Shown piece after piece: positions 361 to 13,950 of a stretch of 13,984 nt of DNA (the stretch's first letter is position 1; the number at the start of each line of letters is the position of its first letter). Both the position numbers and the translations under genes were made by a program. A model generated the notes under the pieces. The model had not been told where the DNA came from and ran no database searches. It was given only the letters and a program-made list of their open reading frames with translations. The stretch is from Candidatus Sordicultor aquaticus (GTDB lineage Bacteria > Atribacterota > Atribacteria > Atribacterales > Caldatribacteriaceae), in contig JAGPEW010000005.1 in the NCBI GenBank assembly GCA_018056825.1, forward strand, positions 1-13,984, read 5' to 3'.

Positions 361-837
361 TTAAGAACGATAAACAGAATTAAGTTTTTCTTTTAGAAAT
401 GACCTTAAATATGCTACTTCATCAATAAAATGAACTTTACCTTCTTCCTGGTATGGTTTAAGCCAGTTACCAGCATCAAATCTAAATAATATTACTTCCT
501 TACCATAGTTTAAGGCCAGGGCAATTTCAGAAATAGTTCCAGCCCTACCCGGTAAAGCTACAATTATATCGCTACTTAAGATATTAATTACATTTCTAGC
601 TATCCCCATACCAGTAACTATAGGAATATCTATATACTGTGACGCCCAATGAGGTTCATCAGTTGGTAAAATACCTATGGTCATGCCACCATAATCTTTA
701 GCCCCTCTTGCTGAAGCTTCCATGATACCGGAGGCTCGACCTCCATTTAACAGAATCCACCCTTCCTGGGCAATCATGGCTCCAATTTGATAGGCATATT
801 CTTCATCTTCTGGATTTATAAATTGAGCACCACCCAT
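361..837 (-). CDS. LOG / TIGR00725-family Rossmann-fold protein (SLOG, lysine-decarboxylase-like nucleotide-binding).
   Basis: The 158-aa ORF contains GGRASGIMEASARGAKDYGGMTIGILP and PGRAGTISEIALAL, which are typical LOG/TIGR00725 motifs. Confidence 0.7.
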   Translation of the reverse strand: MGGAQFINPEDEEYAYQIGAMIAQEGWILLNGGRASGIMEASARGAKDYGGMTIGILPTDEPHWASQYIDIPIVTGMGIARNVINILSSDIIVALPGRAGTISEIALALNYGKEVILFRFDAGNWLKPYQEEGKVHFIDEVAYLRSFLKEKLNSVYRS

Positions 838-1343: not shown

Positions 1344-1583
1344 TTATCTTTTAAAAATTGAACCATCTTGGAGGCCTCGTCTTGCCGGTTTTACTCCTAT
1401 CTTCTCCGCTTTTGCCCCACACTTAGGACAAAATTTATAGTTTTGCCAAAATCTCCAGATGAAGCCACAGTGGGAACAGGCTATAGTCAGCGGTTCACCA
1501 CACTCTCGGCAATAATCGTCCCCACTACTGGCTATGGTTGCTTTACATTTAGGGCATTGAAATGCCCCGCTTTTTCCCTCCAT
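1344..1583 (-). CDS. Small double zinc-ribbon protein.
   Basis: 79 aa with two Cys4 ribbons: CPKC...CREC and CSHC...CPKC. It lies 75 bp downstream of the GvpO-like gene on the same strand. Confidence 0.65.
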   Translation of the reverse strand: MEGKSGAFQCPKCKATIASSGDDYCRECGEPLTIACSHCGFIWRFWQNYKFCPKCGAKAEKIGVKPARRGLQDGSIFKR

Positions 1584-1658: not shown

Positions 1659-1916
1659 TTATCCTTCTTCTCCAGTGTCACTGCGTTTACGCAAGCCCTT
1701 TCTTTCGTAGCTAATGAGCTCGCCATCTTCATTTAAAATAACCTCATAATTTCCTAAGAGATCCATAGCATCAGGAATAGATTTTTTTTCCACCATTTCA
1801 ATAGTAACATGCCAACCCTTTTCATCTTTAAATACTCCCGTAACTCCTGAGGGTTTTAGTTTAGAAAGTTCCATTAATTCTTTTACTGCACGTTCAATTG
1901 CCTCGTTTGCCTTCAT
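1659..1916 (-). CDS. gvpO: GvpO-like gas-vesicle protein.
   Basis: The 85-aa ORF contains GVTGVFKDEKGWHVTIEMVEKKSIPDAMDLLGNYEVILNEDGELISYERKG. This fits the GvpO pattern (DDGW.V.V.VVE...PD..D..G.YEV.LD.DGEL..Y.R). A GGGGGAG Shine-Dalgarno sits about 10 nt upstream. Confidence 0.6.
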   Translation of the reverse strand: MKANEAIERAVKELMELSKLKPSGVTGVFKDEKGWHVTIEMVEKKSIPDAMDLLGNYEVILNEDGELISYERKGLRKRSDTGEEG

Positions 1917-1968: not shown

Positions 1969-2553
1969 TTATGCTTTTATAGCTTTAATTTGTAATATAC
2001 CATTTTTATAGCTTAAATATAACTCCTGTTTAACCGGGTAGGGTAAATTTACCTCTTTATAATATTCTCGCAAGTTACCCTGAGCAGAGATAGTGAGGAC
2101 ATTACCTTTTACCTCAGTTTTAATATCTTGCTCGGCTACCCCCGGTAATTCAGCAATTATCTTTAGGTAATCCCCTTCATCGAAGATATCTATCATTACC
2201 TCTTTTTGCTGTTTTAAAGCTGAGTTTTTCGTCTTTGAAGAAGGTCTAGGATTCCCCACCGTAGTTCGAGGAGGAATAATTGTCCTTCTCCCTTCCTTGG
2301 AGTCTATTTTTTTTAAAGGAGTTACTTTTAACTGTCGGTCTACCTCTTTATTAATCACCCTTAGTCTTTCCTTAAAGGCTTCTGATTTTTCTAATTCTTT
2401 GGTAATATCTCCCAAGCCTGGAATAAACTTCCCCAGTCCGCGGACGACACTACCCGCTACTCCTTCTGCTTCCTCTTCTTTGTCTTTGGCTTCCAACTTT
2501 TTAAATTTCTCTTCTAGTTCTTTTAGCTTTTCTTTCTGGTCTTGATCTTCCAT
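1969..2553 (-). CDS. gvpH: GvpH-like protein with a C-terminal Hsp20/alpha-crystallin domain.
   Basis: The C-terminus reads IDIFDEGDYLKIIAELPGVAEQDIK...SYKNGILQIK, an alpha-crystallin-like beta-sandwich. The N-terminal half is K/E-rich. It is paralogous to the ORFs at 10400-10939 and 4180-4677. Confidence 0.6.
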   Translation of the reverse strand: MEDQDQKEKLKELEEKFKKLEAKDKEEEAEGVAGSVVRGLGKFIPGLGDITKELEKSEAFKERLRVINKEVDRQLKVTPLKKIDSKEGRRTIIPPRTTVGNPRPSSKTKNSALKQQKEVMIDIFDEGDYLKIIAELPGVAEQDIKTEVKGNVLTISAQGNLREYYKEVNLPYPVKQELYLSYKNGILQIKAIKA

Positions 2554-2578: not shown

Positions 2579-3835
2579 TTATTTACCTTTACTTCCTTTA
2601 CTTTCTTCTGCCGAGGTAGTAGGTTTATCCACAAAGCTATAAGGGGGCCAGGGCCCTGAGAAATGAACGGATAGCCCTTCCATATTATTAATTATTTCCA
2701 GCTCATTTCCCAACTCCTCAACCTTCTCTTTAGGCACCAAACAAGATAGATTCATCATCATTACCTTGTTCTTATCCACCTTCTTGGTCTTTTCCACCTT
2801 AATTTCTTCCACACATTTTTTTATTCTTCCATAAAATTCCTCAAAATATTTATCCGCCAGCTTATCCATCTCTTGTTTTGCGATATTCTCCAGCTTTTGC
2901 TTATACATATAAGCCATTCCTGGAGATTTGGAGGCCATTTCCTCTTTTATTTTTCTAATCTCCTCACTTTGTTTTGAAATTTGTTCACTTATTACTTGAG
3001 GATCGTAGGAGATCTGTATTCCATATTCCTCTTTTCCTTTAATCTTCTTTATAATTGTCTGATAACTTTCGTAATCTTCTTTTAGCCAATCCTTTACTAC
3101 CTTGGTGGAATCAGCATTATCTTTAGGCTGAATTATGGTATCAAAGCCCAGCGGAAGGATGGTATCAAATCTCTCTTTGGCTACATCGAGGACTCTTTGA
3201 TGGCTCTTTACCCACTCCTTTACCTTCTCATTATCCTCGGAGGCATAGGGCTCCAGAGGACAGTTATGAACAATAGCACATATACCTTTATAAGGGATAG
3301 TATAAACTTCACTACCCTCTATCCCTATTTTCCCTAAGCTTATTGTTTCTCCCCTATTGGCTATACCATAAAGGTATCTCCCTTCAGCTCCCCTGGAAAT
3401 TACCGGCTCTGCTTCCCTCAATTTAGCTGAACTAACTGTTTTCCTCTCTTTACTTTCACTTTTTACTGACTCGGCAGAGGGAGAAGTTTTTTTCTCAGAT
3501 TGAACCGCTGGTTCTTCTTTCTCTTTAATCTCACTTTTGTCTAACTCTTCGGGGGAGGTGAGTTTTTGGAGTTCTTCCAGAGACTTCTCTAAATTTAAAA
3601 CTTTAGCCTCTATTTTTTCTAATCTTCGAGTCAAAGAAGATTGGTCTTCTTTTTGTTCGGCTTCCTTCTTAATCTCTCCCCTTTGTAAGGCAGCTATTAA
3701 GGTCATCAAAGCGTGAAGCTCTGCCTCATCAGGTTCCTGGTTCATTACCGCCAGCATCTTTTTAATATTTAACTCATTTATCTCTTCCCCCATACTATTT
3801 AACGCTAAAGCTAAAGCTATATAGGTACATTCCAT
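2579..3835 (-). CDS. gvpL: GvpF/L-family protein with a long N-terminal extension (P1/P2-stalk-like domain plus charged linker).
   Basis: The C-terminal ~265 aa read RYLYGIANRGE...ILPLGFDTII...HFSGPWPPYSFV, which are GvpF/L hallmarks. The N-terminal ~57 aa read MECTYIALALALNSMGEEINELNIKKMLAVMNQEPDEAELHALM. A ~95-aa E/K/S-rich linker follows. Confidence 0.8.
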   Translation of the reverse strand: MECTYIALALALNSMGEEINELNIKKMLAVMNQEPDEAELHALMTLIAALQRGEIKKEAEQKEDQSSLTRRLEKIEAKVLNLEKSLEELQKLTSPEELDKSEIKEKEEPAVQSEKKTSPSAESVKSESKERKTVSSAKLREAEPVISRGAEGRYLYGIANRGETISLGKIGIEGSEVYTIPYKGICAIVHNCPLEPYASEDNEKVKEWVKSHQRVLDVAKERFDTILPLGFDTIIQPKDNADSTKVVKDWLKEDYESYQTIIKKIKGKEEYGIQISYDPQVISEQISKQSEEIRKIKEEMASKSPGMAYMYKQKLENIAKQEMDKLADKYFEEFYGRIKKCVEEIKVEKTKKVDKNKVMMMNLSCLVPKEKVEELGNELEIINNMEGLSVHFSGPWPPYSFVDKPTTSAEESKGSKGK

Positions 3836-3866: not shown

Positions 3867-4193
3867 TCAAATACCTTGCTCCTCAGCTTCCTCTTTCCAT
3901 CTCTCCGGATTTACTATCCTATCTACTACATCATCTACTATCTCATCCAAACCATCCCTTACTGCTTGCACCGAATCGGTAATCCCTTGTTCCTCTTTTA
4001 TCTCTTCAATGGCTATATCTAAATCCATTAAAGCTTCTCCCAATCTTTCCACTTCCTCTTCAGTTAAAACTCCGCTTTCCATTCTTTTAAAACCCTGAAT
4101 CCTCAAAGCATCTCTAATTATTTCCACTAAAGCCATTACCAGACCTAATAAACCGTGTTTCAGATTATCTTCATCAACATCAAGGGTAGACAT
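3867..4193 (-). CDS. gvpK: GvpK-like gas-vesicle protein.
   Basis: 108 aa containing LLGLVMALVEIIRDALRIQGFKRMESGVLTEEEVERLGEALMDLDIAIEEI. This fits the GvpK consensus (LV.LV..VVELLR....RQA.RR.E.G.L...E.ERLG..LM.LE). Confidence 0.65.
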   Translation of the reverse strand: MSTLDVDEDNLKHGLLGLVMALVEIIRDALRIQGFKRMESGVLTEEEVERLGEALMDLDIAIEEIKEEQGITDSVQAVRDGLDEIVDDVVDRIVNPERWKEEAEEQGI

Positions 4194-4677
4194 CTTTTTT
4201 CTCCTTCTTTAAGACAATTTCCAAAATACCATTTTTATAAGATTTCTTCACTATCCTTAGAGGCTGGGATAGTTTAATACTGCCCAGGTCAGCCAAAATC
4301 ACTAAACTATCCTCCTCCTCAAAGAGGTCTACTCCTCCTTTTCTGATAACCGGGATATCCTCAGTTAGCCACCAGGAGAAGAGGATCTTTTCTCCACTCA
4401 GAGGATCGATCTTCGCCTCCTCAAACTTTACCAGGGGTCGGCCTAAGATCTTCAGGGAGGTAGGATTTATCACCTCTTTTAAGCGGCTTAATACTTCATT
4501 ATGGTTTTTTGCCCCTATTAAGTTACTCAATTCTTGGATATTAGCATATCTATTCCTATAGAGAAAGATCAATATATCTCTGCTCTTTTTGTCTAAAACC
4601 TCGGCTAATTTATTTATACCCTCTTCTTTTTCTTTATCATCTATTCCTTTTCTCTCTTTATCTTTTTTCTCTTTCAT
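4180..4677 (-). CDS. Fusion of a winged-helix (wHTH) domain and a degenerate Hsp20/GvpH-like domain.
   Basis: The middle reads SRDILIFLYRNRYANIQELSNLIGAKNHNEVLSRLKEVI, which is wHTH-like. The C-terminus reads VDLFEEEDSLVILADLGSIK...SYKNGILEIVLKK, matching the C-termini of the two other Hsp20-like ORFs. Its first 14 nt overlap the gvpK start. Its stop overlaps the start of the 4674-5075 ORF (ATGA). Confidence 0.55.
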   Translation of the reverse strand: MKEKKDKERKGIDDKEKEEGINKLAEVLDKKSRDILIFLYRNRYANIQELSNLIGAKNHNEVLSRLKEVINPTSLKILGRPLVKFEEAKIDPLSGEKILFSWWLTEDIPVIRKGGVDLFEEEDSLVILADLGSIKLSQPLRIVKKSYKNGILEIVLKKEKKDVYP

Positions 4678-5075
4678 TCTTTATATCCACACCTATAGCA
4701 ACCATTTTTCTCAAACTGTTCGGTTACTAACTTGGTCCCACATTTTGGGCATTTCTGGTAATATCCCCTCTTTTTATCAATTTCCTCCAACCCGACGGAA
4801 AGACCAGAACTTTTTTTGGCCTTAGCTAACTCAATATCCTCTTCGGTCCCTTTCCAACCACAGACAAAGCATCCCTTTTCTATTAAGTCCTTTTTTATCA
4901 GCTTTTTGCCACATTGAGGACAAAAGGCATAATACTCACTTTTTTCCAATTTTTTCTTTTCTTCTTCTTGAGCCTCTTTTACATAATCTAATACTTTATC
5001 ACCAACTCCCAGAGTGGGATCGATCCCCAAAAATCCTAAATCACTAAATCTCCCCTTCTCTTTTTTTTCACTCAT
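4674..5075 (-). CDS. Double zinc-ribbon protein.
   Basis: 133 aa with two ribbons, CPQCGKK...GCFVCGW and CPKCGTK...GCYRCG. The signature matches the ribbon tails of the GvpA-like ORFs. GGAGAAGCG precedes the ATG. Confidence 0.65.
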   Translation of the reverse strand: MSEKKEKGRFSDLGFLGIDPTLGVGDKVLDYVKEAQEEEKKKLEKSEYYAFCPQCGKKLIKKDLIEKGCFVCGWKGTEEDIELAKAKKSSGLSVGLEEIDKKRGYYQKCPKCGTKLVTEQFEKNGCYRCGYKE

Positions 5076-5153
5076 CGCTTCTCCTTTCTTTGGAGATCCT
5101 TTATCTCCTGCTCAATTACTTCAATCTCTCGCTGGCAATATTCGAAATACCAT

Positions 5154-6245
5154 TTAGCATACTTTATTCATTTTTCTCTTTACTCTCGGGCTTACCCACC
5201 CACAGTAAATACATCCTCTCTCCAAAAGTTCTTTAACCGGGCTCTCTTTTCCACAATGAGGGCAGGTCTCCCTTTCCCCTTCTTCCCCTTCCTTACTTTT
5301 AGATAAGAGCTGCTCCCATTCCTGCATTGCCTTTTTATTCCCTGAAAAATACTCTTCTCTCCCTTCGTGTCTTACCACCAGTTCTTCTTCTACCTTTAAT
5401 ATCCCGCCACCTTCTTTGGCCTTCTCTATTCTTACCCCTTTTATTTCTTTTAGCTCTACCTCTAAGGCAATACTTCCATCAAAGTCATACCACCAGAGGA
5501 GTCTTTGGTTAGTAAGATAAAGATAGCCAGCTTTCCAGGTCTTACTCTTGGTCCCACCAGGGGCAGGAAGCTCCATTAAGTACCACATCTTCTCCTTGCG
5601 CACTAATTCCTCATTTTCCACTAAGAATTTTGAGGCATTATCGTCTAATACTGGTGCCGGTATCTCTTCAAATGGAAGTCCCTTCTCTTTCATTTTCTCC
5701 TCTATAGCCTTTTTTACCGTAGAAGCATCGGTAGGGTGAAGTTTTTCTATTCCCCCACTTTTAAGGAAGAGATAAAGATAGTCTGTCTTTTTTTTGGCGA
5801 TATTCTCCTTCCTTTCCATAGCATAGCCTTTAATATCTTCATATCTTGTCTCAAAAAGTATCTCGGAAGGCTCTTTTCTATACAAGAAGACCCTTTGATT
5901 AGTAACATAAATATGTCCTGGTCTCCAATTATGCCATATCCCCTTAGAATGCCACTCTGAACCAAACATCTTGATGATAACTTCTTCACCTTCTCGCAAT
6001 AAATTATCCTTCCCCTTTCGCCTTATTTCATCTCGGGCCGCCATCCTTTGTGCTTCATCCCAATCTTTCCACATTCCATAATCTAACATAGTCTGCATCC
6101 CAGCCAAAGCAGTCTTTAATTTAATCCCCAACAGAGGAATCCCCGCTATATGAATAATCAGATCGGTATCCAACATTATACCTTTATCTAGAATCCGGTC
6201 TAAGAGGTCTACTAAGGTAGTTTCTGTATTACGAGTCGGTTCCAT
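5154..6245 (-). CDS. GvpA/J/M-like domain fused to two bacterial-PH/GRAM-like domains and a C-terminal zinc ribbon.
   Basis: The N-terminus reads [48 protein letters not shown], a GvpA-family core. Two repeats follow, [16 protein letters not shown]... and [18 protein letters not shown]..., each with the G.LY.TNQRL bPH/GRAM hallmark. The C-terminus is CPHCGKES...GCIYCGW. Confidence 0.75.
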   Translation of the reverse strand: [363 protein letters not shown]

Positions 6246-6249
6246 TTAC

Positions 6250-6630
6250 TTAATTTTCCTCCAAGGGCAGGGGCGAAATTAATTTTTTTTGGGCAGCTTT
6301 GGCCTTCGCACTAATCCATCCACACCAGGGGCAACCTTCATTCATCAACTCTTCAGCAGAAACCCGCTTACCACATTGGGGACACTCTTCCTTAGCTACC
6401 TTAGCCTCTTGCCAGGCAGCAGTTTCGTAATTTGTGCCACTGGGAAATTCCAGACCATATTTAGCCGCGGTCTCAAAAGAGGCCAGGGCTGCCCTTACCT
6501 TTACCCCTAAGAGCTCCACTCCCGCTACCGATACGGTAATATCTGCATTGATAACCAATCCCTTATCTAAGATACGGTCAATAACATCCACCAAAGTAGA
6601 AGAATCATCCCGCGAAGCTTCTAAAGCCAT
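6250..6630 (-). CDS. GvpA/J/M-like protein with a C-terminal zinc ribbon.
   Basis: The N-terminus reads [50 protein letters not shown]. Compare the GvpA consensus [45 protein letters not shown]. The C-terminus is [23 protein letters not shown]. It lies 4 bp from the preceding gene. Confidence 0.8.
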   Translation of the reverse strand: [126 protein letters not shown]

Positions 6631-6633
6631 CTT

Positions 6634-6870
6634 TTATTCCTCCTTTTTTCTAATAATCTTTAACCTTTCCACCAAATCTGCTTCCAACTGAGCGTAATCT
6701 GCTTCACTTATCTTACCTTCATCTAAGAGTAATTGAAGTTCCTTAAGCCTTTTCTTTACCCCCTCCTCGGTTACCAATCGCTCTTTATCTACTTCATTTA
6801 CAATCCCTTCCAGGACTTGCTTCCCTAATTGTAAGGGGGTCGATAATAAACTACGAATAATAAAAGCCAT
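6634..6870 (-). CDS. gvpG: GvpG-like gas-vesicle protein.
   Basis: 78 aa with a hydrophobic N-terminus (MAFIIRSLLSTPLQLG) and the GvpG-like C-terminus KELQLLLDEGKISEADYAQLEADLVERLKIIR. Confidence 0.6.
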   Translation of the reverse strand: MAFIIRSLLSTPLQLGKQVLEGIVNEVDKERLVTEEGVKKRLKELQLLLDEGKISEADYAQLEADLVERLKIIRKKEE

Positions 6871-6884
6871 AGTCTATCCTCCCT

Positions 6885-7628
6885 TTAGGTCCCTTTTAGT
6901 TTTATACTAACAAAATTATAAGGTGGAACAGGACCAACATATTTAAACTTTAATTTATCTTCATATTTTTGAGCTAACTCATTTACCCTTTGGTCGAAAT
7001 TTTTTTCTTTATCTTTATCTACTAAAAAAGAAGAATTAAGGAGCATTTCAATACTAAGAGGTTTATTAAGACGACTGTCAAAGGCTATCTCCTTAAGAGA
7101 GTTATAAATTCTTTGGCCATACTTTCTTTCCCATTCAGTAACCGTGGACTCCACCAATTTACCTACCTTAAGCTGGGTTTCTTGAGCCTCCTTTGCCGAG
7201 GAAGAAGCAATTTTTTTTCTTAACTCCTGAAAGTTCTTACCCCTACTTTCAATTTCTTTAATAACTGCCTCCCTTTCCCAAAAAACTTTTACTCCTACCT
7301 CTACTTTGCCCTGGAGTTTTTTCATTTCTTTTTTTATTTCGGGATAATTCAATTCGAGGAGCTCAATTATTTTCTCTTCATTTTCCGCGACCGTTCCAAA
7401 ACTCATAGGGAGAAGGAGGTATTGTCTCATAATCTCTTCCAGAACCCGAGTATGAGCTAAAATATTCGCTCGCGTAGGATCATATTCTTTAACTTCAGCC
7501 TCGCTTACTACTGCCGCTAAATCCTGATAATTGATCGTGTATACTTTGTTTTTTTCTATCCCCAAAAAATTAAACTCTTTTCTCTCTGGTTCCTCTATAA
7601 AACCATAAATATATCTACCTATTGGCAT
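6885..7628 (-). CDS. gvpF: GvpF/L-family protein (paralog 2).
   Basis: RYIYGFIEE...DLAAVVSE...LLPMSFGTV...VGVKVFWE...YVGPVPPYNFVSI. Confidence 0.8.
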   Translation of the reverse strand: MPIGRYIYGFIEEPERKEFNFLGIEKNKVYTINYQDLAAVVSEAEVKEYDPTRANILAHTRVLEEIMRQYLLLPMSFGTVAENEEKIIELLELNYPEIKKEMKKLQGKVEVGVKVFWEREAVIKEIESRGKNFQELRKKIASSSAKEAQETQLKVGKLVESTVTEWERKYGQRIYNSLKEIAFDSRLNKPLSIEMLLNSSFLVDKDKEKNFDQRVNELAQKYEDKLKFKYVGPVPPYNFVSIKLKGT

Positions 7629-7648: not shown

Positions 7649-9796
7649 TTATTCTAAACGGGTCTTTAAGGTCTCAATAGCCTCTGCAAAATGTTTCCTG
7701 GAAATTTTAAGGGAAGCACACTCACTTTTCCCTTCTTTTCCCTCCGTCTTCTTTTTAATAAATTCCCTGATCGCTGCCATAGAGGCTTCCCGGCAGATAG
7801 CTTCTATATCCGCCCCGCTTAAACCTTCTGTTTCTTCGGCTAATCTAGCAGGGCTTACTTCTTCCAGCGGTTTCTTCTTCAGGTGAACCTGAAAAATCTT
7901 TTCTCGGCTCTTTTTATCGGGGAGGGGTAAATCTAAAATCACGTCAAATCTCCCCGCTCTCAGGATAGAAGGGTCTATCAAATCCTTTCTATTAGTAGCG
8001 GCTAAGACTACTACTCCCTTCAGCTCCTCAATCCCATCGAGTTCAGTCAAAAATTGGCTAATTACCCTTTCGGTTACCTGAGAATCACCACTCATCCCCC
8101 GCTGGGGGACTAAAGAATCAATCTCATCTAAAAACAAAATAGTAGGAGCCGCTTGCTTGGCTTTAAGAAATACTTCTCTAACCCCCTTTTCTGATTCTCC
8201 GATATATTTGGACATAAGCTCTGGTCCCTTCACCGCTATAAAATTTACTTCACTTTCATTAGCTAAGGCTTTGGCTATTAAAGTCTTTCCACACCCTGGA
8301 GGTCCAGATAATAGAATCCCCTTAGGCGGCCTGGTATGGGCATAGTCAAATAAATCAGGATATTTTAAGGGCCACTCTACTGCCTCGATGAGGGTTTGTT
8401 TAATCTCCTCCAGTCCGCCTACATCCTCCCATTTTACATTAGGAACCTCCACAAAAACTTCCCTGATGGCTGAAGGCTCTACCTCTTTTAAAGCCTCTCT
8501 AAAATTTTCCATAGTTACCTCTAATTCCAAAAGTAACTTATAAGGAACTTCCTCTAATTCAAAATTAATATTGGGTAAGATGCTTCGCAAGGCGTTCATC
8601 GCTGCTTCTCGGCATAAAGCCTCTAAATCAGCCCCTACAAAACCATGAGTAATCTGAGCTATCCTCTCTAAATCTACATCTTTAGCTAAAGGCATTCCCC
8701 GGGTATGAATATGAAGAATTTCTAAGCGAGCCTTTTGGTCGGGGACCCGGATAGAAATTTCCCGATCAAACCTTCCTGGTCGGCGGAGAGCAGGGTCAAG
8801 AACATTAGGAATATTGGTAGCTCCAATGACTATCACTTCTCCTCGAGATTCTAATCCATCCATCAAAGCTAATAGTTGTGCCACCACTCTTTTTTCCACC
8901 TGCTTTTCTCCCCCCATTTCTTCCCGCTTGGGGGCAATAGCATCAATCTCGTCGATAAAGATTATAGCTGGGGCATTGGCTTCCGCTTCCTTAAATACAT
9001 TTCTTAAACGAGCTTCACTTTCTCCATAAAACTTTCCCATAATCTCGGGTCCACTTATATGGCTAAAATAAGCCTCTGTTTCCTGAGCCACCGCCCGAGC
9101 CATCAAAGTCTTTCCACATCCTGGAGGCCCATAGAGTAAAACCCCTTTAGGGGGTTCAATGCCCAATCTCTCAAAAATTTGGGGATATTTTAAAGGTAGC
9201 TCAATCATCTCTCTAACTCTCTGTATTTCCCGGTCCAACCCGCCAATATCCTCATAAGATATCCTCAATCTTTTCCCTTTTGCCTCTTTCTCCCCTTTTA
9301 ACTCAATAACCGTCCCGCTATGAATCAAAACTACTCCCTGGGGAATAGTAGAAACTACCATAAAGTCAAAACTGCGCGCCCCAAAGAGATTAGCTCTAAT
9401 CCTGTCCCCCGCGACAAGGGGTAGACCTTCTAACAGACTGCCTAAATATTTAGTATCCTCACCACCCCGCATCGATCTCATTAAGGCTAGAGGAGAGAGG
9501 ACTATTTTATCAGCTAAGCGGTATTCAGTCTTTTGAATGCTTACTTTTTCATCTAATCCAGCCTGAGCATTTTCTCTTAATAAGCCATCCATCTGAATAA
9601 TGGCTTTCCCTCTATCTTCGGGGTAGGCTGGCATCACTTTAGCTACCGTCCTTCTTTTGCCATAAACCTCTACTATATCCCCTATTTCCACACCTATTTT
9701 TTTAAAATCGGCGGGGTCTATCCTAACTATTGCCCTGCCTACATCTTTGGGTTTGGCTTCGGATATCTTTAGAGTTAATTCGGTTTCTTTAGTCAT
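7649..9796 (-). CDS. Cdc48/VAT/p97-like double-ring AAA+ ATPase (N-domain + D1 + D2).
   Basis: 715 aa. The N-terminal double-psi-barrel-like segment reads [35 protein letters not shown]. There are two Walker A motifs ([18 protein letters not shown] and [19 protein letters not shown]) and two Walker B motifs ([12 protein letters not shown] and [12 protein letters not shown]). SRH-like arginines are present. Confidence 0.9.
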
Positions 9797-9813: not shown

Positions 9814-10386
9814 CTATTTTTTATTATAAATTAAGTAGCTAATCTTAATATCCCGGGATAAATACTTATCTACCCGGTGTTCACTTCCTATAAATAAAAT
9901 TCCAGTCTCTCCTTCTCTTAAGGTCTTATTTATTCTCTGGGCGATATAATTATCTCTTCTTATGAGTAATTGCTTACCTCCTTTTTTTTGTTCCTTTTTA
10001 TCCGAAGAGGTGGCTATATCTTTAATATAGTTATACTCCTCAAGGAGTAGATCTTTGCTCTCTGTCCCTTCCAATTTAGCCCCTTTATTAATTAATTCTA
10101 AGATTATCTTATAATTTATGCTCCCTCTTTCGGCTAACTTCTGGACTATTTCTAACTCTTTACCACAAAGAGGCAATCCATCCTGGTATATTCTCACCTT
10201 CTCATAATTCAATTGTAGGCTTTCAATCTTATCCTTTATCCACTGCCAGAGCTCATTTACTAATTTAAGATGTTCTTCCCATTTTTCTTCCCCAAATTTT
10301 AAGACATACTCTTCCCTTAAATGAGTAGCCACCAACCCCATTTCTAGCTCCGTGTGAATGATGGGAATATAAATTAATCTCCTCAA
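9814..10386 (-). CDS. Hypothetical protein (cluster orphan, 190 aa).
   Basis: Intact ORF 17 bp from the Cdc48-like gene and 13 bp from the Hsp20-like gene. No motif recognised. K/E/I-rich. Confidence 0.5.
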
Positions 10387-10399
10387 TTTTTCTCCTGAC

Positions 10400-10939
10400 T
10401 CAAGCCTTCTCCAGTTTGATCTCTAATATCCCATTTTTGTAAGAGGGCTCCATGCTCTCTTTCTTTACCTTAGAAGGAAGCAATATTTCTTTAGCATATT
10501 TTCTATCCTTATTTTCGGCAGCTAATTTAAGAATATCTTCTTCCAGATTAATTTTAATATTCTCCTCAGCAATTCCCGGTAGTTCCGCAATTACTAAAAT
10601 ATGCTCCTTTTCATCGAATACATCGACTATTGGTTCCCTGACTTCCTCTATTACTGGACCTTTAGGTGTTTCTTTGATATTACCAAAAGTCTCGATTATA
10701 GGTTTATCCCCTACCAGAGTCCTTATGCTAAAACCATAAACCCCTTTAGCCTTTTCCGGTAACCCCTTAATCTCGCCAACTTTTTTAAATTCCCCGCCTT
10801 CTTTACTCACCTTATCTACTAAGTTAATCAAATCACCAATTCCTTTAAATATTCCTCCTAATCTCACTTTCCCCTTACTAAAATCAAATTCTATACCTTC
10901 TTTTTCTTGCTTATCCTCTTTTTCTGTCATTTTTCTCAC
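10400..10939 (-). CDS. gvpH: GvpH-like Hsp20/alpha-crystallin-domain protein (paralog 2).
   Basis: The C-terminus reads VDVFDEKEHILVIAELPGIAEENIK...SYKNGILEIKL. The N-terminal LGGIFKGIGDLINL parallels LGKFIPGLGDITKEL of the 1969-2553 ORF. Confidence 0.6.
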   Translation of the reverse strand: MRKMTEKEDKQEKEGIEFDFSKGKVRLGGIFKGIGDLINLVDKVSKEGGEFKKVGEIKGLPEKAKGVYGFSIRTLVGDKPIIETFGNIKETPKGPVIEEVREPIVDVFDEKEHILVIAELPGIAEENIKINLEEDILKLAAENKDRKYAKEILLPSKVKKESMEPSYKNGILEIKLEKA

Positions 10940-11023: not shown

Positions 11024-11794
11024 TTATTTTAAACTCAAATTAACAAAACTATATGGTGGTGTTGGCCCGATATATTTAAACCTTATCCTTTCCCCATACT
11101 GTTTATCTAATTCGCTTATCTGCTGGTCAAACTCTTTTTCCCGAGTCCTATCTACTAAAAAAACTGCATTTATCAGCATCTCATCACCAGAAGTATTATT
11201 AAGATGAAAATCATAAGAAATTCTTTTTAAGCTATTTACTATCTTTTGACCCTCTTGTTCCCTTTTTTCCTCTAAAGCCTTCTTAACCATTTTACCCAAT
11301 TTTACTTTCTCTTTATAATTTTCCTGGTCATTATCCTTCTCCTGGCCTGACCCTTTAGCTATTTTTTCTCTATAAGATTTTATTTTCTCATCTTCCTCCG
11401 CGATCTCTTGAAAAATAAACTTCATCTCTTGCCAGTAAGCCTTTACTCCTAACTCTATCTTATTATCCAGATCCCTTAATAAACCTTTAAGTTCTAAATA
11501 TCTCCTTCTTAAAAGACTGCGCACCTCTTCGGCACTACTTGCCACCGTGCAAAATCTCATCGGAAGAACAGTATAATCTCTCATTACCTCTTCCACTACC
11601 TTTTCATGAGCAATTAAATTCTCTCGACTTATTACATATTTATCCATAGGAAAGTTGCTAATTACGGCGCTAAGGTCCTCATAACCAATAGTGGATACAA
11701 TATCTCCCCGCCCACCAATGCCCAAGGGGCCAAAATTTCTTCCCTCGTTAGTCCCAATAATGCAGTAAATATATTTACCCTCCTCTATCATCAA
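11024..11794 (-). CDS. gvpF: GvpF/L-family protein (paralog 3).
   Basis: KYIYCIIG...DLSAVIS...VLPMRFCTV...ELGVKAYWQ...YIGPTPPYSFVNL. This is the strongest GvpF-like match of the three. Confidence 0.85.
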   Translation of the reverse strand: MMIEEGKYIYCIIGTNEGRNFGPLGIGGRGDIVSTIGYEDLSAVISNFPMDKYVISRENLIAHEKVVEEVMRDYTVLPMRFCTVASSAEEVRSLLRRRYLELKGLLRDLDNKIELGVKAYWQEMKFIFQEIAEEDEKIKSYREKIAKGSGQEKDNDQENYKEKVKLGKMVKKALEEKREQEGQKIVNSLKRISYDFHLNNTSGDEMLINAVFLVDRTREKEFDQQISELDKQYGERIRFKYIGPTPPYSFVNLSLK

Positions 11795-12102
11795 ATCTTC
11801 TCCCTTCGCTGCCTTATTTCCTCCTCTAAGGCTCGAATATAAATAGGGGATAATTTTCTTCCTTTTATTTTAGCCCATTCTTGAGCCATTATTTTACGGG
11901 TAAGGACTCCTAAAGAAGCTACGTTTATCCTCTTTGGTTCCTTCCTCTTCCCTCTAAGCCTTTCCCTTCCTTCTTCTAACCATTTTTCTTCTTCCTTTTC
12001 CTTATCTCCTATTTTTCCAGCCTGATATTCTTTTAAATCTAGATAGGTTATCTCTAAAAAGGAATCTTCTTTTTTCATAACAGGATAGAATTTACCTCCC
12101 AA
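11791..12102 (-). CDS. Hypothetical small basic protein (103 aa, cluster orphan).
   Basis: The ORF lies between gvpN and the gvpF paralog. Its stop overlaps the gvpF start (ATGA). It is K/R/E-rich with no recognised motif. Confidence 0.45.
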   Translation of the reverse strand: MGGKFYPVMKKEDSFLEITYLDLKEYQAGKIGDKEKEEEKWLEEGRERLRGKRKEPKRINVASLGVLTRKIMAQEWAKIKGRKLSPIYIRALEEEIRQRREKI

Positions 12103-12124: not shown

Positions 12125-13042
12125 TTAGCAATATTTATTGATGAGAGCCTTTACTATATTTTTTACTTTAGTTTGACTAAGACTACTCCCTAAGCGGCTA
12201 CTCTCCGAAGCTAAAATATCCTGACAAATTTCTCTAAAAATTTTATTCTTAGCACTTACTGCGCCACCTAAAATTCCCAAACTTTTAGCGATCATGATAC
12301 AACCCCGAATAGTGGGTTTAAATTCACATTCTTCATAAGTGCGGAGTTCCCTAACGATATCTACAATTTTTTCTGCCTCAGCATAAGATAATTCAGATTT
12401 AGCTTGAGTAATAGCAATTTCAGTCTCTCGGTCAAAGTAATCTAAATCTATAGTAATCATCCTATCCCGCAAGGCATCCTGACTTCTATGAACCCCAGCA
12501 TATTCTTCGGGATTGCTGGTAAAAATGGCTACAAAGTTAGGATGAACTTTTAAATAATTTTCCTGTCCCCGCGCTACTGGTAAATCCATCATCTTTTCTT
12601 GTAAAATAGAAAGAAGGATATTATTGGCTTCAGGACGAGAACGGGTAAATTCATCATAGATAAGGGTAAAGCCATACTCTACGGCTACAGTCAAACGGTT
12701 ATCTACCCAACTCCTCTGTACATCTTCCTCCGCTTTCATCACCGAATGAATAAAATTATCTACTACTCTCCTGGTCCGATAACCGTGCTCTCCCCCCACT
12801 AAATCAGAGGTAGTAAATTCGTCATCTCCATGAATCATAATTACTGGTCGATTTATTAGATGGGCTATATGTAGGGCTAGAGTGGTCTTTCCGGTTCCCG
12901 TTGGTCCCCTAAAATGGACCGGAAAGCCTGCTCTAATATAGCCTAAGGTTCGCGTCGTTACCTCTTTGGTAAACTTTGTCTCCACAAAATTAGGCAGGGC
13001 GCGAGCTTTTAATACAGTTGCTATTTCGGCTGCCATAACCAT
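12125..13042 (-). CDS. gvpN: GvpN, a CbbQ/NirQ/MoxR-type single-domain AAA+ ATPase.
   Basis: 305 aa with Walker A FRGPTGTGKTTLALHIA and Walker B FTLIYDEFTRS. The overall length and pattern are typical of GvpN. Confidence 0.85.
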   Translation of the reverse strand: MVMAAEIATVLKARALPNFVETKFTKEVTTRTLGYIRAGFPVHFRGPTGTGKTTLALHIAHLINRPVIMIHGDDEFTTSDLVGGEHGYRTRRVVDNFIHSVMKAEEDVQRSWVDNRLTVAVEYGFTLIYDEFTRSRPEANNILLSILQEKMMDLPVARGQENYLKVHPNFVAIFTSNPEEYAGVHRSQDALRDRMITIDLDYFDRETEIAITQAKSELSYAEAEKIVDIVRELRTYEECEFKPTIRGCIMIAKSLGILGGAVSAKNKIFREICQDILASESSRLGSSLSQTKVKNIVKALINKYC

Positions 13043-13057
13043 AAATCACCTCACCGT

Positions 13058-13453
13058 TTAATATTCAATATCCACTTCTTTAAAATTGGAAAGCTTAGAA
13101 CCTTTTGTAGCTATTGGAGGGGGGTCTGCTCTTCTCTCGCGCTCCTTCTGAAGTTTGCGTCTTAATTCCATAATTTTTCGGTTTTTATTCACTATCATAG
13201 CTAATTTCCTTCGGCTAGCCAGAAGTCTCTCCCTGTTTCTCTGCATAGCCAAATCCTGTTTAGTAAACCTTTGTCTTTCTCTTTCTAAAGCCTTAGCCAA
13301 GTCTTCTTCATCTACCAAAGAGTACATTTCTTTTAATTCTTCCTCGGTTTTAGATAAAGAATTAGTAGTTTTAATTTTTTGTTCTTCTCTATTCTCCCTA
13401 CTGGTTTTGATATCTCGAAAGGTCTTAATGTTTCTTAAACTTTCATTTTTCAC
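13058..13453 (-). CDS. Hypothetical R/K/E-rich coiled-coil protein in the GvpC-like position. Predicted GTG start.
   Basis: 131 aa, for example RERQRFTKQDLAMQRNRERLLASRRKLAMIVNKNRKIMELRRKLQKERERR. The start codon is GTG (cac at 13451-13453), preceded by the Shine-Dalgarno AGAGGTGG. It lies directly upstream of gvpN. Confidence 0.5.
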   Translation of the reverse strand: MKNESLRNIKTFRDIKTSRENREEQKIKTTNSLSKTEEELKEMYSLVDEEDLAKALERERQRFTKQDLAMQRNRERLLASRRKLAMIVNKNRKIMELRRKLQKERERRADPPPIATKGSKLSNFKEVDIEY

Positions 13454-13581: not shown

Positions 13582-13950
13582 CTAAAGAGGGTAATACAAA
13601 TTATCTTCTTTCCTGATCTTGTTTTCTTCTACCAACTCTTTAGTTATGGTTATATACCATCTCCAATCTTTACCTATTTCTGCACCAATTTCCACAAGCT
13701 TTATCCCCTCAGGATGAGATTTTATTAAATTTAATACCTGCTCTTTCTCTTTCTCGGAGGTTTCCTCCCCCATCTTCTCCACTTTTTCTAGAACTTCTTC
13801 TTTTGTTTTTTTACCTTCAGAAACTGTAGAAACCGGCTTTACCCCTCTTCTCTTTTCTTGCAGACTAGAGGTCAACTCTTGCCAGGAAGCAGACATCTCC
13901 TTTAGATCAGCCCTTATCTCCTCTTGAACTTTATGAAAATCACTTAACAT
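13582..13950 (-). CDS. Putative winged-helix DNA-binding protein. It may be 5'-truncated by the window, since the frame stays open to 13984.
   Basis: The C-terminus reads EQVLNLIKSHPEGIKLVEIGAEIGKDWRWYITITKELVEENKI, which is wHTH-like. There is no in-frame stop between the first ATG (13950) and the window end. Confidence 0.45.
   Translation of the reverse strand: MLSDFHKVQEEIRADLKEMSASWQELTSSLQEKRRGVKPVSTVSEGKKTKEEVLEKVEKMGEETSEKEKEQVLNLIKSHPEGIKLVEIGAEIGKDWRWYITITKELVEENKIRKEDNLYYPL

Follow-up and report, generated by a model that had tools for sequence, protein, structure and literature searches.

Gas-vesicle locus and ribbon-bearing genes

The 13,984-nt contig JAGPEW010000005.1, from assembly GCA_018056825.1 of Candidatus Sordicultor aquaticus (Atribacterota), was analysed whole and is referred to here as the window. 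Every sizeable open reading frame (ORF) lies on its minus strand, and Pfam annotation and gene tables place these ORFs together in one gas-vesicle (gvp) cluster (Table 1). Our subject is a small cysteine-rich ribbon that recurs in three products of this cluster: a GvpJ-like protein of 126 aa (p126) and a GvpM-like protein of 363 aa (p363), each with one C-terminal ribbon, and a stand-alone, Cys-rich protein of 133 aa (p133) with two (R1 and R2). By the same shorthand, p165 is the 165-aa product encoded next to p133. Judged by their sequences, the four ribbons are one specific module common to several proteins of the cluster.

Table 1. Ribbons, other protein features and genes of the window. 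Gene rows run in the direction of transcription, from 13,950 downwards.
Feature	Position	Strand	Remarks
J-type ribbon	6316-6384	-	p126 aa 83-105
M-type ribbon	5196-5264	-	p363 aa 328-350
p133 ribbon 1 (R1)	4854-4922	-	p133 aa 52-74; basic subtype, CPQCGKKLIKKDLIEKGCFVCGW
p133 ribbon 2 (R2)	4683-4751	-	p133 aa 109-131; CGY end, CPKCGTKLVTEQFEKNGCYRCGY
N-terminal linear motif of p133, LG-IDPTLGVGDKVLDY	4983-5030	-	p133 aa 16-31; predicted disordered or helix-start
Two PH-like domains of p363	5289-5981	-	p363 aa 89-319
Two ORFs without convincing family match (first two genes)	13582-13950 and 13058-13453	-	122-aa and 131-aa proteins
GvpN	12125-13042	-	
103-aa ORF without convincing family match	11791-12102	-	
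GvpF/L	11024-11794	-	
Hsp20 (first)	10400-10939	-	
190-aa ORF without convincing family match	9814-10386	-	
Cdc48-type double-AAA ATPase	7649-9796	-	CDC48_N + CDC48_2 domains
GvpF	6885-7628	-	
GvpG	6634-6870	-	
p126, GvpJ-like, 126 aa	6250-6630	-	PF00741 + NCBIfam halo_gas_GvpJ
p363, GvpM-like, 363 aa	5154-6245	-	PF00741 + NCBIfam halo_gas_GvpM
p133, stand-alone tandem-ribbon protein, 133 aa	4674-5075	-	alignment of homologues
p165, 165 aa, truncated alpha-crystallin (sHsp/GvpH-like) C-terminal part	4180-4677	-	weak Hsp20 match
GvpK	3867-4193	-	
GvpL	2579-3835	-	
Hsp20 (second)	1969-2553	-	
GvpO	1659-1916	-	
79-aa generic double zinc ribbon (DZR) protein	1344-1583	-	PF12773, downstream of gvpO
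SLOG-family gene	361-837	-	

Four ribbons of one family

A six-frame scan of the window with the regular expression CP.CG.{11}GC..CG[WYF] returned exactly four matches, all on the minus strand and in frame within called ORFs, and in 4/4 the two CxxC pairs are separated by a spacer of 13 residues. Over 300 triplet-block shuffles, a mean of 0.003 loose skeletons (C..C-x13-C..C) arose per shuffled sequence, and the strict motif never did. The four cysteines, arranged as two CxxC pairs, are invariant in alignments of p133, GvpJ and GvpM homologues. Further features common to the ribbons are a proline after Cys1, usually a glycine after Cys2, Gly-[Trp/Tyr] after Cys4, and a spacer consensus, common to the classes, of [KR]-x-[VAL]-x-x-x-[ED]-L-[LMI]-x-x-G.

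The ribbons are more like each other than like generic two-knuckle proteins. With a profile made solely of GvpJ-tail ribbons taken from other genomes, the window's M ribbon scores 38.7 bits, R1 32.5 and R2 16.5, compared with a maximum of 13.5 and a mean of 0.3 bits for 2,000 random decoy sequences that keep the CxxC-x13-CxxC skeleton, and with no more than 7 bits for DZR and DnaJ-type CxxCxGxG proteins from the same clusters. Over all single-class profiles (J, M, R1, R2), the cross-class scores of the window ribbons run from 15 to 48 bits, against decoy maxima of 13.5-16.2. The weakest member is R2, which at 16.5-20.6 bits stands just above the decoy maximum for the J-only and M-only profiles, and reaches 25.7 bits with the R1 profile. 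The suspicion that the ribbons might resemble each other no more than they resemble generic ribbons was thus dispelled by the comparison with decoys and DZR proteins. We propose that a gas-vesicle ribbon family be defined by the pattern CPxC-x13-CxxCG[WYF], a cross-class score above that of decoys, and location in a gvp cluster; all four window ribbons combine these attributes, and location in a gvp cluster likewise holds for loci L002, L005, L007-L012 and L095 and for the 80 GTDB loci described below.

The original prediction had placed the module in four proteins of the cluster, of which p126, p363 and p133 stand. The fourth, the 79-aa ORF downstream of gvpO that had been described as a related double ribbon, does not: it passes the Pfam DZR model PF12773 (38.0 bits, cut-off 27.3), and its knuckles are interleaved with a spacing unlike that of the four ribbons. 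As a candidate fifth ribbon it was rejected, since against all ribbon profiles it yields at most 13 bits, through half-knuckles only and within the decoy range; the module therefore occurs in three proteins.

Carriers of the J- and M-type ribbons

Both single-ribbon carriers belong to the GvpA family, as had been predicted: p126 (61.8 bits) and p363 (47.5 bits) exceed the gathering cut-off of 25 for PF00741 (Gas_vesicle), and the scan described above bears out one ribbon on each, with two in the 133-aa protein. The best NCBIfam model for p126 is halo_gas_GvpJ (NF046090; 98.8 bits, against 59.9 for GvpM and 45-60 for GvpA), and for p363 it is halo_gas_GvpM (NF046091; 91.2 bits over profile positions 1-67 of 67, against 38.5 for GvpJ and 33-34 for GvpA). 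As these best scores lie below the curated, haloarchaea-specific cut-offs of 125 and 109, respectively, we call the proteins GvpJ-like and GvpM-like. The motifs RAA[IL]A and [EK]YGL mark GvpJ and GvpM (PMC8716928); p126 has RAALA and KYGL, and p363 a GvpM-style variant.

In p126 a GvpA-fold domain (aa 12-50) is followed by a conserved linker and the C-terminal ribbon, in which CPxC...CPWCGW is invariant across a 20-sequence alignment of J-type ribbons with identity down to 54%. The layout of p363 is more elaborate: the GvpA-fold domain spans aa 10-48, two PH-like domains follow in tandem (about aa 89-187 and 214-319), and the ribbon is C-terminal. Besides PF00741, Pfam matches the protein to Vps36/GRAM/bPH. 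Its AlphaFold2 (AF2) model has a mean predicted local distance difference test score (pLDDT) of 81, with both PH-like domains confident and the ribbon at about 83-86; low confidence in the GvpA-like alpha-beta-beta-alpha unit is expected for the monomer of a lattice protein. Foldseek matches the model to the double-PH proteins BBS5, Rtt106 and FACT Spt16/Pob3 (E 6e-9 to 1e-6). Homologues of about 360-370 aa that join GvpM to two PH-like domains are widespread, occurring in many phyla, and our literature search found no description of this GvpM-PH architecture.

The stand-alone protein

All 47 homologues of p133 fall between 85 and 172 aa and have in common both ribbons and an N-terminal motif. 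The motif columns L16, G17, D19, P20, T21, L22, G23, G25, D26, K27, V28 and D30 are invariant or nearly so, giving a family form LG..DPTLGVGDKVLDH, and remoter stand-alone ribbon proteins begin M-V-F-DP-I-S...IL. Identity of this motif with the N-terminus of GvpG was considered and set aside as too weak: hhalign pairs p133 23-39 with GvpG 14-31 at a probability of 11% (P 0.0027), with controls of P 0.11 for GvpK and P 0.64 for GvpO. In AF2 the p133 monomer reaches a mean pLDDT of 63, with both ribbons near 80 and a disordered stretch below 50 at aa 1-27; each ribbon is modelled as hairpin, knuckle, short helix, knuckle. Across the AF2 models the first knuckle lies in a beta-hairpin and the second follows a short helix, and no significant structural match for the ribbon was returned by Foldseek, the p133 model finding nothing in the PDB at E<=0.001. 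Searching the ribbon profile against PDB sequences likewise produced only half-knuckle CPxCGK matches (C2H2 fingers, Nop10, rubredoxin, L33).

Conservation and taxonomic spread

Searches with p126 and p363 yielded 3,977 and 615 homologues, respectively, of which 120 are listed in each case. Among the matches listed, the GvpJ ribbon is present in 120/120 homologues at 73-94% identity, under names that include Chloroflexota, Desulfotomaculum and Halobacteriota, and the GvpM ribbon in 103/120, with the consensus CPxCG-x11-GCxxCGW[VMI]S[P]. The listed GvpM homologues come from Methanophagales, Methanothrix soehngenii, Methanotrichaceae, Coprothermobacterota, Actinomycetota and the isolate Clostridium sp. 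ZS2-4.

In the Genome Taxonomy Database (GTDB), scanned at one genome per species, 564 stretches encode relatives of GvpJ. Locus statistics are taken from the best 80 of these 564, in all of which the GvpJ match spans the ribbon at 70-92% identity. Archaea and Chloroflexota in the best 80 include Methanophagales (ANME-1), Methanoregula, Methanomicrobiaceae, Methanotrichaceae, Dehalococcoidia and Anaerolineales; further taxa include Actinomycetota (Hakubella), Atribacterota, Nitrospirota, Desulfobacterota, Bacteroidota, Ignavibacteria, Planctomycetota (Scalindua), Omnitrophota, Zixibacteria, Acidobacteria and Bacillota. Conservation at this level in so many bacterial and archaeal phyla overturns the earlier description of the module as lineage-specific. 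Syntenic gvp clusters were seen in an archaeon, a Desulfotomaculum metagenome-assembled genome (MAG) and a Chloroflexota MAG. On three other Atribacterota-type contigs a p133 homologue directly follows the GvpJ-like gene within a gvp cluster, and the GvpJ-like and GvpM-like proteins there bear ribbons with the same spacing, so that absence from orthologous clusters, which would have spoken against a shared module, is not what we find.

The order gvpJ-gvpM-ribbon-p165-gvpK of the window is that of Methanophagales and Methanotrichaceae loci (L014, L085, L088), and its GvpJ is 92% identical to that of Methanophagales. Other Atribacterota loci (L002, L005, L007) are ordered differently, as gvpJ-ribbon-...-gvpK-gvpL-gvpM. 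Because the window matches archaeal rather than other Atribacterota loci in this respect, the order suggests either transfer of the cluster between domains or mis-binning of the contig. In the cultured, gas-vacuolate methanogen Methanothrix thermoacetophila an expressed gvpG-"gvpA"-gvpM-gvpK-gvpLF series runs in the order seen here, a likeness of gene order alone (PMC10470525).

The groups that carry the ribbon are largely known from anoxic habitats, among them methanogens, ANME-1, Dehalococcoidia, Atribacterota, sulfate reducers, anammox bacteria, and brine-pool and subsurface MAGs. This raises the prospect that the Cys4 site, holding zinc, or iron as in rubredoxin, serves as a metal or redox switch that ties nucleation to reducing conditions or metal supply and thereby restricts vesicle formation to anoxia. 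Rubredoxin, too, has the CPxCG knuckle, and p126 has a weak NCBIfam rubrerythrin-like match (18.9 bits, cut-off 32); moreover, GvpJ of the model haloarchaeon is cysteine-free (PMC8716928). Horizontal spread of one cluster type among anaerobes would, however, account for the distribution equally well, the cluster has no redox partner genes, and sequence cannot tell zinc from iron. We consider such a switch, taken by itself, very unlikely.

Fusions and gene adjacency

An exhaustive search of 1.84 billion representative proteins with a 32-column profile (A2), built from J, M, R1 and R2 ribbons, gave 161 matches at E<=0.001, of which 149 were classified. The largest class has a GvpA domain and/or a GvpM-type PH region (57/149), followed by short single-ribbon proteins or fragments (43/149) and small tandem-ribbon proteins, one of them with three ribbons (20/149). 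In three proteins the ribbon lies N-terminal to an alpha-crystallin domain of the small heat-shock protein (sHsp) or GvpH-like kind, in one it is fused to GvpG, and six are other ribbon-bearing proteins; the remaining 19/149, at the bottom of the list, are generic CPxCG repeats without the 13-residue spacing, which we regard as noise. As the matches outside this noise tail are mainly of gvp context, the ribbon appears essentially confined to gas-vesicle proteins.

The fusions warrant closer description. A Pfam Hsp20 domain is confirmed in the ribbon-sHsp fusion P0436, and more weakly in P0406; a fourth protein, P0386, resembles such a fusion by eye and has no Pfam match. For the ribbon-GvpG fusion P0341, GvpG is among the precomputed Pfam matches. 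The ribbon-sHsp fusion P0427 is encoded between gvpJ and gvpK, where the window has p133 together with p165, and a divergent tandem-ribbon protein, P0289, is likewise encoded directly after gvpJ. The window counterpart of the fused chaperone-like part is p165, in which an N-terminal domain without any family match precedes the truncated alpha-crystallin region; its NCBIfam Hsp20 match is weak (21.2 bits, E 1.7e-4), and BLASTP aligns it to the alpha-crystallin part of P0427 (E 2e-4) with an internal deletion of roughly 27 residues. Orthologues of p165 (149-188 aa) hold the same place before gvpK in archaeal, Chloroflexota and Desulfotomaculum clusters.

Within the 80 GTDB loci, all of which have the J ribbon by selection, GvpM with both PH region and ribbon occurs in 29, and there are 15 GvpA-domain ORFs with a PH region and no ribbon. 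A stand-alone gene is found with two ribbons in 19 loci and with one in five, and it adjoins gvpJ or the gvpJ-gvpM pair in 24/24. The next recognisable gene is of alpha-crystallin type in 19 of 23 cases (10 p165-like, 9 Hsp20b-like), often overlapping. Selection of all loci for the J ribbon makes mere co-presence of Cdc48, p165 or DZR uninformative about a partner; position, together with the fusion, makes p165 a likely functional partner of p133. Stand-alone proteins as a whole are arrays of one, two or three ribbons joined by linkers of roughly 25-35 aa.

Several isolated arrangements were also observed. Six ribbons are spread over three consecutive genes in L095 (1-1962), namely GvpJ (one), a 123-aa protein (two) and a 191-aa protein (three), with Hsp20 next; the 191-aa protein has an extra N-terminal domain of roughly 60 aa that is also found in P0298, P0388 and P0397. 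In L011 (7181-7935) GvpJ and the neighbouring ribbon-sHsp fusion, whose ORFs overlap, have ribbons that end identically in GCPICGWISPLK. The 154-aa P0331, a match of the exhaustive search, joins a TIR domain (PF13676, 78.6 bits) to an M-type ribbon tail, and may be a genuine fusion or else a gene call that is chimeric or frameshifted.

Remaining genes of the cluster

No short canonical gvpA was found by six-frame scan of the window, where the GvpA-domain profile matches only p126 and p363. Given that related loci have a 68-70-aa gvpA upstream of gvpN, that of the window probably lies just past the contig end. Counterparts of the 190-aa, 122-aa and 131-aa proteins are present in 11-17 of 36 large related loci, and of the 103-aa protein in only 1/36. 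The Cdc48-type ATPase is a regular member of this cluster type (28/36), and no paper found in our literature search treats Cdc48 as a gas-vesicle gene. By phmmer the DZR protein recurs in 18/36, and its gene keeps its place next downstream of gvpO in L002 (twice), L005, L009 and L010. The Atribacterota-type loci L002, L005, L007, L011 and L012 are far larger, with tandem ArsA-type ATPases, Hsp70, a GvpF-DnaJ fusion, DnaJ-type CxxCxGxG repeat proteins and a Volactin-family protein, amounting to a chaperone-rich gas-vesicle locus. Plus-strand GC skew is uniformly and strongly negative across the window (-0.15 to -0.49) and AT skew is also negative, consistent with all genes being on the minus strand.

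A proposed docking module on putative nucleation proteins

The domain fusions and gene adjacency make a protein-interaction role, which was among those originally predicted, the best-supported reading of the ribbon. With moderate confidence, we propose that it may be a protein-protein docking module of the nucleation complex, and that the stand-alone proteins may act as multivalent adaptors. GvpJ, GvpM and GvpS have been proposed as nucleation or tip factors (bioRxiv 10.1101/2022.05.08.489936; PMC11445434). In split-GFP experiments with the Halobacterium proteins, GvpJ's C-terminal half binds GvpG, GvpH and GvpL, and the C-terminal 25 aa of GvpM bind GvpF, GvpH and GvpL (PMC8716928); the docking proposal is in keeping with the overlap between these tail partners and the proteins to which the ribbon is fused, or beside which it is encoded.

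The mechanism that we envisage is as follows. The ribbon would be a small, metal-stabilised Cys4 module dedicated to gas-vesicle biogenesis, in which a beta-hairpin knuckle and a second knuckle flank a short helix. It would take the place of the unstructured hydrophilic C-terminal tails through which Halobacterium GvpJ and GvpM make the contacts listed above, and on GvpJ and GvpM seeds it would be suspended C-terminally from the GvpA-fold domain, perhaps facing the cytoplasm. Stand-alone proteins with one to three ribbons and an N-terminal peptide would use the same docking surface as multivalent adaptors, and might thereby bridge or regulate the contacts made during nucleation between the J/M seed and the sHsp-like chaperone, with GvpG or GvpL perhaps also taking part. 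Candidate partners for the ribbon itself are the sHsp-like protein, GvpL/F, GvpG, GvpA or another ribbon.

Several observations weigh against this proposal. Permutation of J, M, R1 and R2 over 12-29 loci gave no sign that ribbons of different classes are more alike when they share a locus (p 0.34-0.97), and so no co-evolution signal for ribbon-ribbon pairing; the four classes are accordingly old, separately conserved paralogues that have not been recently homogenised. The ribbon is lacking in 17/120 GvpM homologues among the matches listed, that of Desulfotomaculum included, and the stand-alone protein is missing from 56 of the 80 GTDB loci (some of them truncated); with 17/120 GvpM proteins and many clusters doing without them, the M ribbon and the adaptor would be dispensable in some lineages. 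AF2 confidence for the p133 monomer is only moderate. Finally, the conserved cysteine, proline, glycine, tryptophan and Leu-Leu residues may all be structural, in which case there is no obvious conserved binding surface.

On a passive explanation, the ribbon does no more than keep the aggregation-prone tails of GvpJ and GvpM soluble and compact, and the stand-alone copies, as degenerate duplicates, would have no specific function. Conservation is indeed highest at the positions expected to build the mini-fold, and the M ribbon has been lost in some lineages. Independent fusions to sHsp-like and GvpG proteins would be unexpected of a solubility cap, however, and the stand-alone family keeps an invariant N-terminal motif, class-specific subtypes and a fixed gene position across phyla. 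In light of these features, a purely structural cap seems to us highly improbable.

Alternatively, the ribbon might bind the shell itself as an analogue of GvpC, recognising the outer face of GvpA, such that the J and M ribbons capture the first GvpA subunits and the multi-ribbon proteins staple GvpA subunits or ribs and stiffen the wall. Arrays of one to three repeats would suit a periodic lattice, and a shared ligand, GvpA for instance, would account for the presence of one module on J, M, sHsp-like and GvpG proteins. It also accords with this notion that Pfam annotations and gene tables of the window and related loci contain no GvpC-annotated gene, a statement that comes from those annotations and not from a search aimed at GvpC. 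A wall stiffener would be expected to be general, however, whereas most of the 80 loci are without the stand-alone protein, and adjacency to gvpJ and an sHsp-like gene points to an early nucleation set, not to gvpA. We regard lattice binding as unlikely.

Nucleic-acid binding, the other role originally suggested, would have the ribbons bind DNA or mRNA, for example in coupling translation to assembly or in autoregulation of the operon. R1 is strongly basic, with a mean core charge of +3.4 across the stand-alone family, and the known structure nearest to a lone ribbon is that of AccD (2f9i_B; root-mean-square deviation (rmsd) 1.5 A over 32 residues, 31% identity, Foldseek E 1.5), with PF17848 matches in 15/149 relatives. 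The N-terminal zinc ribbon of AccD has been reported to bind nucleic acid in E. coli. Automated annotations, too, speak of RNA-binding Zn-ribbon or ribosomal proteins: in the databases, ribbon proteins go either by "gas vesicle protein" or by spurious names of Zn-ribbon COGs (L37AE, S27AE, HypA, topoisomerase Zn-finger, DUF1610). These names stem from generic Zn-ribbon COG matches, however; no Pfam nucleic-acid-binding ribbon family reaches threshold, the J ribbon core is slightly acidic (-0.9), and the fusions are to shell-family, chaperone-like and GvpG proteins and not to known regulators. A role of this kind is, in our estimation, a slim prospect.

Returning to docking, a composite with the redox switch can be formulated, in which a hitherto unrecognised, pan-anaerobe variant of nucleation has its Cys4 site on the seeds, read by the adaptors and the sHsp-like partner, and gates the start of vesicle formation by metal or redox state. 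We judge this decidedly unlikely; if true, a metal- or redox-gated seed would give the nucleation step its first defined molecular handle. Nucleation of gas vesicles is an acknowledged open question, and in model systems the suspected seed or tip proteins have disordered tails of low conservation. The same tails here carry a compact, almost invariant domain, also in families that include cultured gas-vacuolate methanogens (Methanothrix). Four cysteines within a 23-residue core constitute a mutable handle, with which binding in nucleation might be dissected, or the seed tagged and localised by cryo-electron tomography, and which might find use in setting how many vesicles engineered acoustic-reporter clusters produce. 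The finding also corrects the widespread database entries that wrongly present these proteins as ribosomal or as RNA-binding Zn-ribbon proteins. The breadth and conservation of the ribbon may surprise specialists and should render the nucleation question more tractable, whichever function the module, assigned here by inference, proves to have.

Comparison with known systems

Haloarchaeal GvpJ and GvpM resemble their counterparts in the window in their N-terminal GvpA-fold domains and in the gene neighbourhood G-J...K-L-M. The tails differ: GvpJ of Halobacterium ends in 50 acidic, cysteine-free residues and GvpM in 20, whereas those in the window end in a Cys4 ribbon, and p363 has in addition two PH-like domains. 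A more distant parallel is offered by the C-terminal domain of Halobacterium GvpC, which contains a zinc-finger motif and associates both with itself and with GvpH, F, I, L, N and O (PMC9372576). There, as proposed here, a small metal-binding motif forms an interaction hub on a gas-vesicle surface protein, although this is analogy only, given that the motif is of the form CxxC...HxxxH (MVQCRVCGEYYQAITEPHLQTH) and is found on GvpC, not on GvpJ or GvpM. Homology between the two was considered and rejected, the ribbon profile matching no Gvp protein of pNRC100.

Among Cys4 proteins at large, Pfam DZR, generic ribbons and PF24441 (DUF7560) share the two CxxC knuckles. Of all Pfam models DUF7560 matches the most relatives (30/149 at E<1e-3, best E 1.3e-10), including P0288 at 38.1 bits (cut-off 27). 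In contrast to the ribbon family, the generic models have neither the fixed 13-residue spacer, nor the x-V-x-x-x-E-L-L-x-x-G helix, nor the CG[WY] end. The window proteins stay under the threshold of every Pfam ribbon model, p133 scoring 21.4 bits with DZR (cut-off 27.3) and 19.6 with DUF7560 (cut-off 27), and p126 and p363 having no Pfam ribbon match at all. The AccD zinc ribbon (PF17848) provides the best local superposition, with rmsd 1.2-1.7 A over 31-33 residues at 29-31% identity, and a similar succession of hairpin, helix and knuckle. It differs in its unrelated context, in Foldseek E values of 1.5-3.4, which are not significant, and in the absence of any PF17848 match in the window proteins. 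The spacer of the E. coli AccD ribbon is about 15 residues, not 13.

Full-text searches of the literature found no paper that pairs gas vesicles with zinc ribbons, the sole remark on zinc in connection with GvpJ concerning GvpC, and searches on Atribacter and gas vesicles returned irrelevant papers only. Set against these systems, the gvp cluster and the Cys4 ribbon fold class are known; what is apparently new is a dedicated, widely conserved ribbon family, predicted from sequence comparison, on the seed proteins of gas vesicles and on their stand-alone paralogues.

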